Shown here: positions 13,139 through 60,963 of the stretch, one piece after another
Layout: the number at the start of each line of letters is the position of its first letter
How positions within the stretch are numbered: the stretch's first letter is position 1
NCBI GenBank assembly: GCA_934140005.1
Contig: CAKPBB010000006.1
Span: 2,604-66,603 of the forward strand
From: an uncultured Clostridia bacterium
GTDB taxonomy: Bacteria; Bacillota; Clostridia; TANB77; CAG-508
Direction of reading: 5' to 3'
Length of the DNA stretch: 64,000 bases
Translations under genes and position numbers: made by a program
The notes under the pieces: model-generated
Database searches by the model: none
Told to the model about the DNA's origin: nothing
Seen by the model: only the letters and a program-made list of their open reading frames with translations

Positions 13139-13187
13139 AATATCGCATTCTTCTAAAAATAAAATGTAAGAAGATTGCGATATTTTT
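13139..13187 (+). terminator. Intrinsic terminator whose 3' arm shares the 12-mer AGAAGATTGCGA with the three-copy repeat
   Basis: AATATCGCATTCTTCT and AGAAGATTGCGATATT form a hairpin with one mismatch, followed by TTT. Confidence 0.7.
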
Positions 13188-23650: not shown

Positions 23651-23787
23651 AAATTATATAATATATGTTTTGAAATACCGCGTAAGCGACCAAACGAACA
23701 AAGTGAGTGCGAATGGAGCAATCTTCATATAAAATAAAAATAGAAGATTGCGACACCAAGGTATAGAAAACATATATTATATAATTT
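23651..23787 (+). repeat. Copy 1 of a three-copy ~135-nt intergenic element (putative structured RNA)
   Basis: Perfect 21-bp closing stem (23651-23671 with 23767-23787), a conserved 59-nt core GAAATACCGCGTAAGCGACC...ATCTTCATAT, and inner hairpin GCAATCTTC/GAAGATTGC. Confidence 0.9.
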
Positions 23788-52537: not shown

Positions 52538-52656
52538 TATTGTCATTTTTGAAAAAATGTGTAACTAAATTATTAGTTATTGGTTATATATTATTGTAAA
52601 GTATTAACATTACAAATTGAATTTATATAAGATATAATGTGAAGGGGGAGAAAATT

Positions 52657-55518
52657 ATGAGAAGAATAAAGATTATTATATCAAGTATACTAATATTTTT
52701 AATTTTAGTACCATATTTTAATATGGTTTATGCTACTAATGAAATACAAAATTTTTCAAAACTTGAGGAAAATACTATAGAAGACAAAACGGTTACAAAA
52801 AATACAAATGCTAATGTTACAGAAAAAGAGATGACTATTGAAAATAGTGTAAATGCTAATGTAGCAAATAATACAATTTTGTCAAATACAATAACAAATA
52901 ATACTACTAATAGTACTAAAAATAATTCAGAAAATTCTGTAAAGAATAATGTAAGCAACAATGTAGAAAAAAATAATTCTAATAGTAGCAATACAACTAA
53001 AGATATGAATACTTCAAATACAAATAATAATGTTACGAAAGAAGAAAAAAAGAATAACACAGTAAACAATAATATAACAAATAAAGAATCTTTAAATGTA
53101 AGTAATAATTCAAATAGTAATTTAACTAATGTACAATCTGCAAACAAAAAAGGTAGAATGTGGTTAGATACAATTCAAGATAATCCAACCTATTATGTGC
53201 CAATGCAAAAGCAAATAAGTGTAGTAGGCTGGGCAATATCAAATGATAAAAATGCAAAAGTAAGAGTATATATAAATAATAAATTATATATATCAGAAAT
53301 GACTAGAACGCAAAGACCAGATGTAGATAAAATATCAGGGGAGTATGGTGGAACAGCAACAACCCAAAAAGCAGGGTATTCAAATAGAATAGATATATCA
53401 TCATTAGCAAATGGTAAATACACATTAAAAGTTGAACAAGTAAGTAGTGAAAATAAGGTATTATCTAGTGTTGAAAAGACTTTTTATATAAAAAGAGAAA
53501 ATGCTAGAGGTAGAATGTGGTTAGACACGATACAAAATAATCCAACTTATTATGTACCAACTCAAAGTACAATAAGTGTTGTTGGTTGGGCAATATCAAA
53601 TGATATAAATGCAAAAGTAAAAGTATATATAAATAATAAGTTATATATATCAAAAATGACTAGAACACAGAGACCAGATGTAGATAAAATATCAGGGGAG
53701 TATGGTGGAACAAATACAACATCAAAAGCGGGATATTCAAATAGAATAGATATATCATCTTTACCAGCTGGAAAATATACATTAAGAGTTGAACAAGTAA
53801 GTGGTGAAAATAAGGTATTATCTAGTGTTGAAAAAAATTTTTACATAGCAAAAGAAACTGCTAAAGGAACAATGTGGTTAGATACAATACAAAATAATCC
53901 TACATATTATACACCTACTCAAAAAACAATAAGTGTAGTAGGCTGGGCAATATCAAATGATAAAAATGCAAAAGTAAGAGTATATATAAATGATAAATTA
54001 TATGTATCAGAAATGACTAGAACACAAAGACCAGATGTAGATAAAATATCAGGGGAATATGGTGGAACTGCTACAACACCAAAAGCAGGATATTCAAATA
54101 GAATTGATATATCATCTTTATCAGTTGGAAATTATACTTTAAAAGTAGAACAAATAGATAAAGACAATAACGTTATTTCAAAAGTTGAAGCAAAATTTTC
54201 AATAAAAGAAGTAGAATATAAAGGAAATGAATGGCTAGATACAGTTACTGAAAAAGAAAAAATAATTGTACCAACAAAAGAAACTTTACGAGTAAGAGGT
54301 TGGGCAATATCAAATGACAAAAATGCAAGAGTAGAAATATCAATAGATGGCGTAGTTCAAGTTAAAAGTGCAAAACGTTTTTCAAGATCAGATGTAGATA
54401 AAATATCAGGAGAATATGGTGGAACATCTACAACACCAAAAGCAGGATATGATACAACTTTAGATATTGTTAATTTGCCAGAAGGAACACATACAGTTAC
54501 AGTAAAACAGATATCAAGTACAGGTAAAACAATATCTATAATTGAAAGAAGATTTATTATAGAAAGAGAAAAGTTTAATGGATATGTCGATATTGATTAT
54601 CCAATAAATTTACAACTATATACAACAAGTAATAAGACACTTTTAGTTGCTGGTTGGACTTTATCAACAGATGCTAAGGATACTGTAGAAATAAAAATAA
54701 ATGGAAAAAAATATTCTCCTAATAGATGGTATAGAAGTGATGTAAATTCAGCAGATTATGGAGGTAAATCTAAAAATCCAACTCCAGGTTATGGTTATCA
54801 GATAGATTTATCAAAATTTTCAGAAGGAACTTATACAGTTGAAGTAAGTGTAATATCAAGATGGGGAAAAGTAATTAGTTCTAGAAGTAGAAAAATTGAA
54901 ATTTCTTTTTCAAAATATGCTGGTGTTGATGTATCAAGACACAATGGAAAAATAGATTGGCAAACATTGAAAAATAAAGGAATTGAATTTGCAATTATAA
55001 GGATTGGTTATGGACAAAACTCAAATCAAAAAGATGACTATTTTGAATATAATTATTCTGAATGTAAAAAATATGGAATAAAAGTAGGAGTATACTTATA
55101 TAGTTATGCTATGAATGTAGAAGATTCAGAAAAAGAAGCTTTAAATTGCTTGAAGTGGTTAAATAATAAAAAACTAGATTTACCAATATACTATGATATA
55201 GAAAATGAAACTGATGGTTATCCACAACATACCATAGACAAAGGAACTTTAACAGAAATGGCTTTAACTTTTTTGAAAAAGATATCTTCTTCAGGATACA
55301 AAGCAGGGCTTTATTCTAGCAAATATTGGCTAGAATCAAAGTTTGATATGAGTAGAATAGAAAATAATTATTCTGTATGGGTAGCACAATATACATCACT
55401 AATGCAAACTTCATATAAAGGAAAATATGATATTTGGCAATGGCTTGATGGAAAAAATGATGAAATGATGGGTGGACTAGATAGAAACTGGTGTTATAGA
55501 AAATCTTTAATACATTAG
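52657..55518 (+). CDS. Secreted GH25 muramidase (autolysin) with an Asn-rich linker and five 119-aa tandem repeats
   Basis: C-terminal GH25 domain (GVDVSRHNGKIDWQTLKNKGIEFAIIRIGYG). ATG 52657 follows GGGGGAG. Confidence 0.85.
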   Translation: MRRIKIIISSILIFLILVPYFNMVYATNEIQNFSKLEENTIEDKTVTKNTNANVTEKEMTIENSVNANVANNTILSNTITNNTTNSTKNNSENSVKNNVSNNVEKNNSNSSNTTKDMNTSNTNNNVTKEEKKNNTVNNNITNKESLNVSNNSNSNLTNVQSANKKGRMWLDTIQDNPTYYVPMQKQISVVGWAISNDKNAKVRVYINNKLYISEMTRTQRPDVDKISGEYGGTATTQKAGYSNRIDISSLANGKYTLKVEQVSSENKVLSSVEKTFYIKRENARGRMWLDTIQNNPTYYVPTQSTISVVGWAISNDINAKVKVYINNKLYISKMTRTQRPDVDKISGEYGGTNTTSKAGYSNRIDISSLPAGKYTLRVEQVSGENKVLSSVEKNFYIAKETAKGTMWLDTIQNNPTYYTPTQKTISVVGWAISNDKNAKVRVYINDKLYVSEMTRTQRPDVDKISGEYGGTATTPKAGYSNRIDISSLSVGNYTLKVEQIDKDNNVISKVEAKFSIKEVEYKGNEWLDTVTEKEKIIVPTKETLRVRGWAISNDKNARVEISIDGVVQVKSAKRFSRSDVDKISGEYGGTSTTPKAGYDTTLDIVNLPEGTHTVTVKQISSTGKTISIIERRFIIEREKFNGYVDIDYPINLQLYTTSNKTLLVAGWTLSTDAKDTVEIKINGKKYSPNRWYRSDVNSADYGGKSKNPTPGYGYQIDLSKFSEGTYTVEVSVISRWGKVISSRSRKIEISFSKYAGVDVSRHNGKIDWQTLKNKGIEFAIIRIGYGQNSNQKDDYFEYNYSECKKYGIKVGVYLYSYAMNVEDSEKEALNCLKWLNNKKLDLPIYYDIENETDGYPQHTIDKGTLTEMALTFLKKISSSGYKAGLYSSKYWLESKFDMSRIENNYSVWVAQYTSLMQTSYKGKYDIWQWLDGKNDEMMGGLDRNWCYRKSLIH
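53152..54912 (+). repeat. Five in-frame tandem repeats of 357 bp (units start at 53152, 53509, 53866, 54223, 54580)
   Basis: Units 1-3 are near-identical (GRMWLDTIQxNPTYY...RPDVDKISGEYGG...). Units 4-5 are diverged. Confidence 0.9.
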
Positions 55519-55633: not shown

Positions 55634-56566
55634 ATGGTTTATATTGATTTTTTAGAAAATGAAGAAGAACTTTCTTTTTATAGTTTAAGAAAATATTGGA
55701 AAATTGTTAATAAGGTACGACTAATGTATTATAAAATTTTTAGAAAGGTAATTTCTACAAGTTTAGAAGATAAGACTGTTGTGTTATTGCCTAAACTAGA
55801 TAGTAGAAGTTTTAAAAAATTAGAACAGAAACTTTTACAAATGAATAGTAAAACAGTTTGCTTATCAAAGAAATTGGAAAATAATGATACATTGAAAGAT
55901 TTTTTGAATGAAAAAAATAAGGATATTTTAGATGGTAAATGGTTATTTTCTTATTTAGTTGAACACATTTTAGCATATATTGAAAAACAAACAGAGGAAA
56001 ATATTTCAGAACAGGAAATTGCAATTCTTACTAATGAAATAGATGAAAAGATAGCAGGTTGGATTATAAAATTAGCTTGTAAATATAAGAAGATAGAATT
56101 GATTACCAAAGAACCGTTGAAATTTAAGAAATTGGAAGAAAATTTGTATAATGAATATGGTATAGAATTAAATGTAACATATAATGAAAGAAAGAGTTTG
56201 AAAAATGCTGGTATTGTATTAAATTTTAATTTTGCAGAAGAGGCATTAAATAAATTTTCAATTAGCAAAAATGCAATAATCATAAATTTTGAACAAGAAA
56301 TTGCAATAGAGAATAGAAGCTTTAATGGAATTATTGTAAATGGTTATCACATACATTTGCCAACTAACTATTTTAAATATGTTATTCCATTTCAAAAATT
56401 TTCAAGTAATTTGATATATGAAAGTTTAATTTATAAAAAAACGAATTTTAATAATGTGTTGAAGCAAATTTTAGATGATAATGTAGAATTGCATTATTTA
56501 ATTGGAATAAGAGGCAAAATAAAGAATCAAGAGTTCAAAAGAAGAAAAAAACTACTGACAAATTAA
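55634..56566 (+). CDS. Hypothetical protein
   Basis: 310-aa ORF with an SD (GTGAGGAAA). No family recognised. Confidence 0.45.
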   Translation: MVYIDFLENEEELSFYSLRKYWKIVNKVRLMYYKIFRKVISTSLEDKTVVLLPKLDSRSFKKLEQKLLQMNSKTVCLSKKLENNDTLKDFLNEKNKDILDGKWLFSYLVEHILAYIEKQTEENISEQEIAILTNEIDEKIAGWIIKLACKYKKIELITKEPLKFKKLEENLYNEYGIELNVTYNERKSLKNAGIVLNFNFAEEALNKFSISKNAIIINFEQEIAIENRSFNGIIVNGYHIHLPTNYFKYVIPFQKFSSNLIYESLIYKKTNFNNVLKQILDDNVELHYLIGIRGKIKNQEFKRRKKLLTN

Positions 56567-56572
56567 ATTTTT

Positions 56573-56704
56573 AGAATAAATATATTGTTTTGAAATACCG
56601 CGTAAGCGACCAAACGAACAAAGTGAGTGCGAATGGAGCAATCTTCATATATTATAAAAAAGTAAGATTGCGACACCAAGGTATGAAAAACATATATTTA
56701 TTCT
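56573..56704 (+). repeat. Copy 2 of the three-copy intergenic element
   Basis: The 59-nt core is identical to copy 1. The closing stem (56573-56591 with 56687-56704) has one bulged T. The inner hairpin loop differs. Confidence 0.9.
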
Positions 56705-56806
56705 TATTTATAACTGAAATTTTTATTGCTGTAAATCTTGACAAATTAGAAAATAAACAGTATTATAGAATACAATGTAAGTAACAAATGAAAGGGGACT
56801 TATAAT

Positions 56807-57283
56807 ATGGGAGAAAAAGAATTTTTATTAACACAAGAAGGATACGATAAATTAGAAAAAGAATTAGATTATTTAAAAACAACAGAAAGATATGCAATAG
56901 CAGAAAGAATAAAAGTTGCTTTAGGATTTGGAGATTTATCAGAAAATTCAGAATATGATGAAGCAAAAAATGCACAAGCTGCAAATGAAAATAAAATTGC
57001 AGAACTAGAAGAAAAAATAAAATATGCTAGAGTAATTGATGAATCAGAAATTGATACAGAAGTTGTTCAAGTTGGAAATATTGTTAAAGTTTTAGATATG
57101 GAATTTGACGAAGAAATCGAGTATACAATAGTTGGTTCAACAGAGGTTGATTTAGCTCAAAACAAAATTTCAAATGAGTCACCAATTGGTCAAGCATTAC
57201 TAGGAAGAAAGAAAAATGAAATTGTTGATGTTCAAGCACCAGCTGGTGTATTAAAATTCAAAATATTAGAAATAACAAAATAG
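56807..57283 (+). CDS. greA: Transcription elongation factor GreA
   Basis: LTQEGYDKLEKELDYLK...GDLSENSEYDEAK...SPIGQALLGRKKNE. Confidence 0.95.
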   Translation: MGEKEFLLTQEGYDKLEKELDYLKTTERYAIAERIKVALGFGDLSENSEYDEAKNAQAANENKIAELEEKIKYARVIDESEIDTEVVQVGNIVKVLDMEFDEEIEYTIVGSTEVDLAQNKISNESPIGQALLGRKKNEIVDVQAPAGVLKFKILEITK

Positions 57284-60826: not shown

Positions 60827-60963
60827 GTTTTATTATATATTATTTTGAAATACCGCGTAAGCGACCAAACGAACGAAAGTGAGTGCGAATGGAGCAATCT
60901 TCATATAATTATAAAAATAGAAGATTGCGACACCAAGGTATAAAAAATAATATATAATAAAAC
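60827..60963 (+). repeat. Copy 3 of the three-copy intergenic element
   Basis: Perfect 20-bp closing stem (60827-60846 with 60944-60963) whose sequence differs from copies 1 and 2. The core has one G insertion. Confidence 0.9.

Follow-up and report, generated by a model that had tools for sequence, protein, structure and literature searches.

Between the gene for a 310-amino-acid protein and greA, in a window of 64,000 nucleotides (the whole stretch of DNA that was analysed) from an uncultured Clostridia bacterium, lies a 132-base hairpin with an open reading frame running through it. The locus raises the question of whether this hairpin is part of a gene, a leader of greA, the terminator of the upstream gene or one copy of a dispersed repeat, and, if it is a repeat, what preserves its sequence.

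The repeat copy upstream of greA

The covariance model identified exactly three copies of the repeat in the window, all on the + strand, with E-values from 7e-27 to 4.5e-30 (Table 1). An earlier note on this DNA had described the 5' core of copy 2, the copy upstream of greA, as identical to that of copy 1, and the first 40 nt (GAAATACC...GTGCG) were indeed the same in both, with a chance expectation of 0. Across 113 nt the two copies were 94% identical. The differing inner loop that had been pointed out was recovered as well: from P2 to P2', all differences between copies 1 and 2 were confined to the P5 loop (ATATATTATAAAAAAGT and ATATAAAATAAAAATA, respectively) and the closing pair, and P5, with 8 bp in copy 2 against 9 bp in copy 1, matched the inner stem described as one base pair shorter. 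The arms of the closing stem of copy 2 measured 19 nt (5') and 18 nt (3'), leaving one T unpaired in the 5' arm, which is the single bulge reported before, and 12 nt of the 3' arm were common to copies 1 and 2 (AAAACATATATT), also as reported. The further claim that the closing stem belongs to the element was borne out, with the refinement that only the inner 12–20 bp, TTTT-RAA beside P2 followed by an A/T-only block, was found throughout the family, the outer part of the stem being specific to each copy.

The folding energy of copy 2 was -32.9 kcal/mol, compared with -16.9 +/- 2.95 kcal/mol for shuffled sequences (z = -5.4). All three copies in the window were more stable than their shuffles (z = -5.4 to -8.4), and their two strands folded about equally.

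Table 1. Features of the repeat copies and of the greA locus in the window
Feature	Position	Strand	Remarks
Copy 1 of repeat	23655..23783	+	Between fmt and asp23
Copy 2 of repeat	56573..56704	+	Upstream of greA
Copy 3 of repeat	60830..60960	+	Between cdsA and rseP
5' arm of closing stem	56573..56591	+	AGAATAAATATATTGTTTT; inner ATATATTGTTTT common to the other copies, outer AGAATAA specific to copy 2
Purine internal loop GAA	56592..56594	+	Opposite GA at 56685-56686; non-complementarity kept family-wide
P2, 5' strand ATACC	56595..56599	+	Partner GGTAT at 56680-56684
Invariant GCGTAAGCGA	56600..56609	+	2-bp mini-hairpin with GUAA (GNRA-type) loop; invariant alignment columns
P3/P4 arm	56610..56636	+	From anchor-parsed copies; CCAA x ATGG at the base in copy 2
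P4 start pairs in copy 2	A56614-T56628, C56615-G56627	+	The former is the M-K pair
P4 remainder in copy 2		+	Tandem sheared G·A, then small apical hairpin AC-AAA-GU, then GCGA bulge
P5 hairpin GCAATCTT...AAGATTGC	56638..56671	+	8 bp; copy-specific A/T loop at 56646-56663
Conserved joining strand GACACCAA	56672..56679	+	Family consensus GAC-N2-3-CAA
P2, 3' strand GGTAT	56680..56684	+	Pairs with 56595-56599; covariation
3' arm of closing stem	56687..56704	+	AAAACATATATTTATTCT
Spurious ORF	56590..56784	+	64 codons, TTG start; open frame, not called in other assemblies
Upstream gene	55634..56566	+	310 aa, no Pfam match; stop codon 6 nt before the element
greA promoter TTGACA-17-TATTAT	56738..56766	+	11/12 consensus; downstream of the element
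greA	56807..57283	+	Pfam GreA_GreB_N and GreA_GreB

The open reading frame across copy 2

The ORF starts at a TTG inside the 5' arm, passes through the core and runs on across the greA promoter. It had been called an artefact in the earlier note, and our comparison led to the same view: aligning the three copies disclosed no reading frame common to them or conserved across them. In copy 1 a TAA closed the frame once 20 codons had been read, and the extra G of copy 3 shifted it after 10 codons, the frame loss that had been predicted. No gene was called over 56590-56784 in four other assemblies of the same species. A genuine 64-aa protein is almost certainly not encoded here, since an open frame with a TTG start is all that speaks for it, neither copy 1, where the frame is closed, nor copy 3, where it is shifted, preserves it, the ORF overruns a promoter, other assemblies carry no such gene, and its length is due solely to the loop differences between the copies. 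The ORF is evidently a by-product of the loop sequence peculiar to copy 2, and we propose that it be removed from the annotation.

Insertion between the upstream gene and the greA promoter

The element ended 102 nt before the greA ATG, the distance given earlier. Examination of the same intergenic region in 37 congeners showed that the stop codon of the upstream gene abuts CTTGACA in nearly all of them, with no hairpin in between, and that the spacing from greA promoter to ATG is the same in these 37 congeners without the element. Because the stop codon abuts the promoter in the congeners, copy 2 represents a lineage-specific insertion of about 170 nt. By this comparison copy 2 is part of a ~170-nt insertion between the upstream gene and the greA promoter and not a greA leader, and it probably lies outside the greA 5' UTR, as the conserved promoter is located downstream of the element. 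The element should accordingly be kept apart, in annotation, from a greA leader or riboswitch. Insertion into an older terminator hairpin at greA was considered and rejected, the stop codon abutting the promoter without a hairpin in the 37 congeners. TGACAAATTA, found on both sides of copy 2, is a pre-existing similarity that was also present in congeners without the element.

The 251-nt spacer between the upstream gene and greA was identical in four other assemblies of the species, and copy 2 is apparently fixed in those strains of the species that could be compared. The greA promoter itself (CTTGACAAA...TTATTATA; loci L189-L217) was conserved in both sequence and position over about 37 species of the genus, where it normally begins at the stop codon of the upstream gene.

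Size and distribution of the family

Six copies of the repeat were found in the genome to which the window belongs, while four congeners carried at least 25, 18, 7 and 4 copies and most other congeners none. An exact-motif scan of species-representative genomes returned at least 119 stretches, almost all from metagenome-assembled genomes (MAGs) labelled 'uncultured Clostridia' and originating from rabbit, goat, sheep, buffalo, chicken, mouse and human guts. Order-wide, covariance model R1 was positive in 74 of 301 genomes, 71 of which fell within one GTDB family, and in 14 of 43 genera, with 1 to at least 12 copies per genome, scoring being capped at 12. In a class-wide sample of 300 genomes the same model gave positives in this GTDB family only. 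Judged from these searches, copy 2 belongs to a palindromic DNA repeat that carries no gene, has not been described before and occurs in uncultured gut Clostridia.

Several known origins were considered for this family. Rfam gave no match at the gathering score within the window, no meaningful match for copy 2 at E <= 10 (Rfam 15) and no consistent match for 13 diverse copies at E <= 1 (Rfam 15), by which we ruled out a known RNA family, self-cleaving ribozymes and riboswitches included. A phage or plasmid origin was likewise discarded, with no exact-motif match in viral contigs and no blastn match in phage and plasmid collections. In genomes with few copies (1–3 model matches), the loci shared no neighbours, and there is therefore no master locus; a master or orthologous RNA gene was rejected on the same non-synteny.

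We found neither a transposase nor a parent element for the repeat. There was no direct repeat around any of the six own-genome copies that could represent a target-site duplication, and no copy split by a gene with its halves apart among about 250 loci. 'Empty' hairpins sharing the inner stem were likewise missing from the own genome. Comparison of filled and empty sites with the relative G298 did not define the inserted unit, the intergenic DNA being too diverged. Genes for Y1 transposase/RAYT (PF01797), the foremost candidate among hairpin-acting enzymes, were absent from genomes G000, G298, G140 and G059, which carry 6 to at least 12 copies each, and were common in genomes without the element; mobilisation of the RAYT/IS200 type was rejected for want of this phyletic association. 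Within the order-wide sample, 172 of the 301 genomes had Y1 (IS200/RAYT-type) genes, frequently more than one, and in-frame stops interrupted some of them; their occurrence is unrelated to the repeat family.

Fold of the conserved centre

An alignment of 50 diverse copies and an anchor-based parsing of 155 distinct copies together demonstrated that the centre of about 90 nt is nearly invariant and forms a single-strand four-way junction made up of P2, a GUAA mini-hairpin, a P3/P4 arm with tandem G·A and P5. P2 (5 bp) changed on both sides at 5 of its 5 pairs, with 98% of cells paired in the 50 copies. In the 155 copies it was Watson-Crick in 765 of 775 pairs, and despite this massive covariation only 1 of the 775 was G·U. 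Directly after P2 came the invariant GCGUAAGCGA, which folds as GC-GUAA-GC. P3 was CCAA x UUGG family-wide, its sole variation being C to U opposite G. The first pair of P4 (M-K) was A-U in 114 and C-G in 38 of the 155 copies and the second was C-G in 137 and U-A in 18; the tandem sheared-type G·A that follows had strands GA/GA in 102 copies, and a further 43 showed GA/AA. The apical hairpin covaried and differed in length (GC-GNRA-GC, AC-NNN-GU, AU-GAA-AU and 5-bp versions), and was followed in the family fold by a GCGA bulge. P5 had 8–9 bp in the window copies and was longer in some lineages, with changes on both sides at four pairs. The covariation score reached 0.375; shuffles scored 0.146 and slid partners no more than 0.10. 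Since P4 does not form a palindrome at the DNA level, its covariation speaks for a folded single strand, RNA or DNA, corresponding to the + strand of the window.

About 65 nt of the centre were almost invariant, whereas P2 and the loops differed by 20–40% between copies of one genome, and the same ~65 nucleotides were retained across 14 genera. This near-invariance looks like purifying selection on each copy, and it is not an obvious prediction for a purely selfish element. The family raises the question of how an element that is flipped and moved keeps these ~65 nt unchanged in 14 genera. The GNRA loops, tandem sheared G·A and variable-length hairpins fit a functional RNA as well as they fit a folded DNA strand.

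Arms and their complementarity

In each copy, AT-rich arms carry the centre at their tip. Adjoining P2, the left arm of the family had TTTT-RAA and the right arm NAAAAA, which form the purine internal loop, and the A/T-only block of 7–8 nt followed this inner motif family-wide. Beyond about 20 bp the arms had nothing in common save that, at about +/-23, the left side tended weakly to an A-tract and the right side to a T-tract. Within single copies, 17–45 bp of the arms were near-perfectly complementary, and their outer sequence was unique. Mismatches in the outer arms had no strand bias, with 42 sense G·U and 31 antisense (A·C on the sense strand), although as a strand test this count is not informative. 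Taken together, the single G·U among the 775 P2 pairs and the unbiased outer-arm mismatches argue that arm complementarity is not kept by selection on an RNA helix.

According to PMC8604942, PMC13100816 and PMC8794818, template switching between inverted-repeat arms homogenises the arms, inverts the spacer and lengthens the arms. Perfect arms, copy-specific outer stems and flipping of the centre would thus all be accounted for by this one process. It does not explain the invariance of ~65 nt in the centre, nor does it explain the arrival of the element at new loci. We consider the family a clean natural case of perfect "compensatory" stems that are most simply due to DNA copying between inverted arms, and the covariation of the centre helices, with its RNA-type motifs, is beyond what arm copying can produce. 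The family also counsels caution in covariation-based ncRNA searches of AT-rich metagenome genomes.

Placement, orientation and flipping

None of the 66 copies with context lay inside an ORF, and all were 30–100 nt from the 3' end of a gene. Orientation relative to the neighbouring genes was mixed, with the copies divided into classes of 28, 13, 12 and 11. At three of six orthologous loci compared between Lapin-005 bin45 and Lapin-015 bin83, the centre was reverse-complemented between collinear unique flanks, and the parsed cores were identical at two of these three flipped loci. In genome G005 a larger palindromic unit, itself repeated, bore the element at its tip, and the element faced either way with respect to the flanks of that unit. 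As read from aligned loci, the centre has been inverted between its arms in the course of evolution, and this flipping explains the mixed orientation of copies relative to genes.

Within the species the picture was uniform. The copies were present in one orientation in all its assemblies recovered for five of the six loci, which rules out absence or inversion at the strain level for every assembly recovered. The few SNPs between these assemblies fell in the internal loop, the joining strand and the flank of copy 1. Copies 1 and 2 contained a weak outward promoter-like match, GCGACA-17-TATATT (9/12). We rejected an outward promoter in the centre, because 9/12 was no better than in shuffles and the direction disagreed with the commonest orientation of copies. 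A conserved -35/-10 pair at a fixed distance was not found in the arms, and a scan for canonical terminators (G+C-rich stem, short loop and adjoining U-tract) returned zero terminator-like sites at the three window copies. At the site equivalent to a relative's element, G000 had a plain hairpin.

Comparison with known systems

The repeat resembles bcr1 of the Bacillus cereus group, Correia/NEMIS, RUP and ERIC (PMC3184786) in being short, gene-less, dispersed and intergenic, with inverted ends and long hairpins often at the ends of genes, and in a copy number that varies strongly between related genomes. The resemblance is in kind only. Like miniature elements of the MITE type, it occurs in many dispersed, non-syntenic and non-coding copies. 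Terminal inverted repeats were conserved only as the inner TTTT-RAA and A/T-only block, and neither a target-site duplication (six own-genome copies) nor an autonomous transposase-bearing element (~250 loci) was found. In contrast to hairpin MITEs, the repeat conserves its centre while its arms are copy-specific beyond 12–20 bp, no target-site duplication or parent IS was seen, and its centre is a covarying four-way junction that flips in place.

With REP/BIME and REPIN sequences the repeat shares a palindromic structure, an extragenic position close behind genes, occurrence in either orientation and large numbers of copies. REPs conserve their palindromic arms (GTAG/CGTC heads) and vary the spacer; the repeat described here does the opposite, with a conserved centre and variable arms. 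The REPIN-RAYT system has a Y1 transposase, whereas G000, G298, G140 and G059 carry the repeat without one. Quasipalindromes shaped by template switching, as described in PMC8604942, PMC13100816 and PMC8794818, are similar in their G·U-free complementary arms, inversion of the spacer and arms lengthened from local sequence. Such switching is a mutational process and not an element; dispersal to new loci and conservation of the centre are outside its reach. The invertons of gut bacteria and Clostridioides difficile also have inverted repeats that bracket a segment of about 100 bp found in both orientations. In our family the segment between the inverted repeats was observed in both orientations between species and between paralogues; unlike invertons, it has no demonstrated promoter or linked recombinase, and its arms differ between copies.

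Proposed explanation and alternatives

We favour, with a probability of roughly 0.55, the reading that the family is a foldback or MITE-like repeat whose centre serves as a single-strand recognition structure for spread or inversion, and that, next to greA, it is passively transcribed at the tail end of the upstream gene, where its hairpin forms a barrier. A non-coding, dispersed palindromic repeat of one family-level clade would have entered the spacer between the 310-aa gene and the greA promoter. Its arms and P2 would be kept complementary by copying of one arm from the other at the DNA level, likely through template switching or recombination between the inverted arms, and the centre would be conserved since its single-strand fold is recognised by the machinery of spreading and flipping. 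At the greA locus, transcription would reach the element only from the upstream gene, whose 3' tail it would form, and the long hairpin of copy 2 may act as a transcript-end barrier, a terminator substitute that separates the upstream gene from greA.

An alternative has the centre function as a structured RNA (a trans-acting sRNA or a new self-cleaving ribozyme) that has been multiplied across the genome, with the arms as a processing stalk (for RNase III, for example) that frees it from read-through transcripts. The covariation of P2, P4 and P5 is consistent with this, as are the non-palindromic P4 with its tandem G·A pairs and GNRA loops, the varying lengths of the P4b and P5 hairpins, the near-invariance of unpaired nucleotides across 14 genera and the first two pairs of P3, which deviated only as sense-strand U·G (30 versus 0). 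We nevertheless consider it unlikely: the centre is inverted at three of six orthologous loci, in 28 of 66 copies it lies antisense to the genes on both sides, the arms hold no conserved -35/-10 pair at a fixed distance, P2 is nearly devoid of G·U pairs, no Rfam family was matched by diverse copies even at E = 1, and genomes have anything between 0 and more than 25 copies, with most congeners having none and no syntenic master locus. Distinctly unlikely, in our estimate, is the broader proposal that the ~90-nt four-way junction represents a natural functional fold of a new type, in RNA or ssDNA, either a small ribozyme or a module by which a structure-specific enzyme recognises the cassette it flips or copies. 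Were it such a recognition module, these Clostridia would carry self-contained flip-flop modules at gene ends throughout their genomes, and re-orientation of the structured element would alter 3'-end processing or termination.

Two further readings assign the element a role at the ends of genes, and both seem improbable to us. As a programmed invertible DNA switch, an inverton, its centre would be flipped by a dedicated recombinase, changing transcription or termination at gene ends. The geometry suits such a switch, with inverted repeats of 17–45 bp around ~100 bp, a conserved inner-arm motif and two orientations at orthologous loci and among paralogues, and the weak outward match in copies 1 and 2 could be added to these; yet the assemblies of the species recovered for five of the six loci were all in one orientation, the match did not rise above the level of shuffles and would point into a gene 3' end in the commonest arrangement, association with a recombinase was not established, and inversion of the spacer is also an expected by-product of template switching according to PMC8604942. 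Alternatively, the host may keep the element simply as an intrinsic terminator of the upstream gene or as a stabiliser of its 3' end, the repeated centre being incidental. Its constant position just past a gene 3' end, the A-tract left and T-tract right of the arms at about +/-23 and the plain hairpin of G000 where a relative has the element would agree with this, but canonical terminator scans were negative at the copies, an invariant 90-nt four-way junction is needless for termination, and the lack of any hairpin between the upstream gene and greA in 37 congeners indicates that the locus needs none.

Related and neighbouring structures

Some copies elsewhere were truncated or had insertions in P5 or P4b, and another copy (L041, G001:C7:50762-51169) contained a 19-nt unit, GCGTAAGCGACCAAACGAA, tandemly duplicated inside the core. 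In G005 (L052-L068) the repeat had a P5 longer by about 30 nt and sat within the larger repeated unit, at its tip; this unit measured about 500 bp and had inverted ends of its own (AATTGTTATTTGTGTGA...), and the centre was flipped relative to it in 2 of about 12 copies. In G184 and G276, which represent another genus of the same family (L234-L256), the repeat was located between inverted arrays of 1–7 copies of a 22-nt GC-rich unit, consisting of GGGGTCGGTCCC followed by a T-run at the left and its complement at the right. These arrays yield palindromes several hundred bases long, and the motif of the unit was absent from the own genome.

Two other structures were observed in the window. An ordinary-looking terminator hairpin at 13141-13185 consists of TATCGCATTCTTC, a 16-nt A-rich loop and GAAGATTGCGATA, followed by TTTTT; it has the 11-mer GAAGATTGCGA and the type of loop in common with P5 of the repeat, and the covariance model scored it at only E = 0.53. 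At 53151-54521, four tandem 357-nt repeats, 61–88% identical, represent repeated protein domains within the gene for a 959-aa secreted GH25 lysozyme-like protein (52639-55518).
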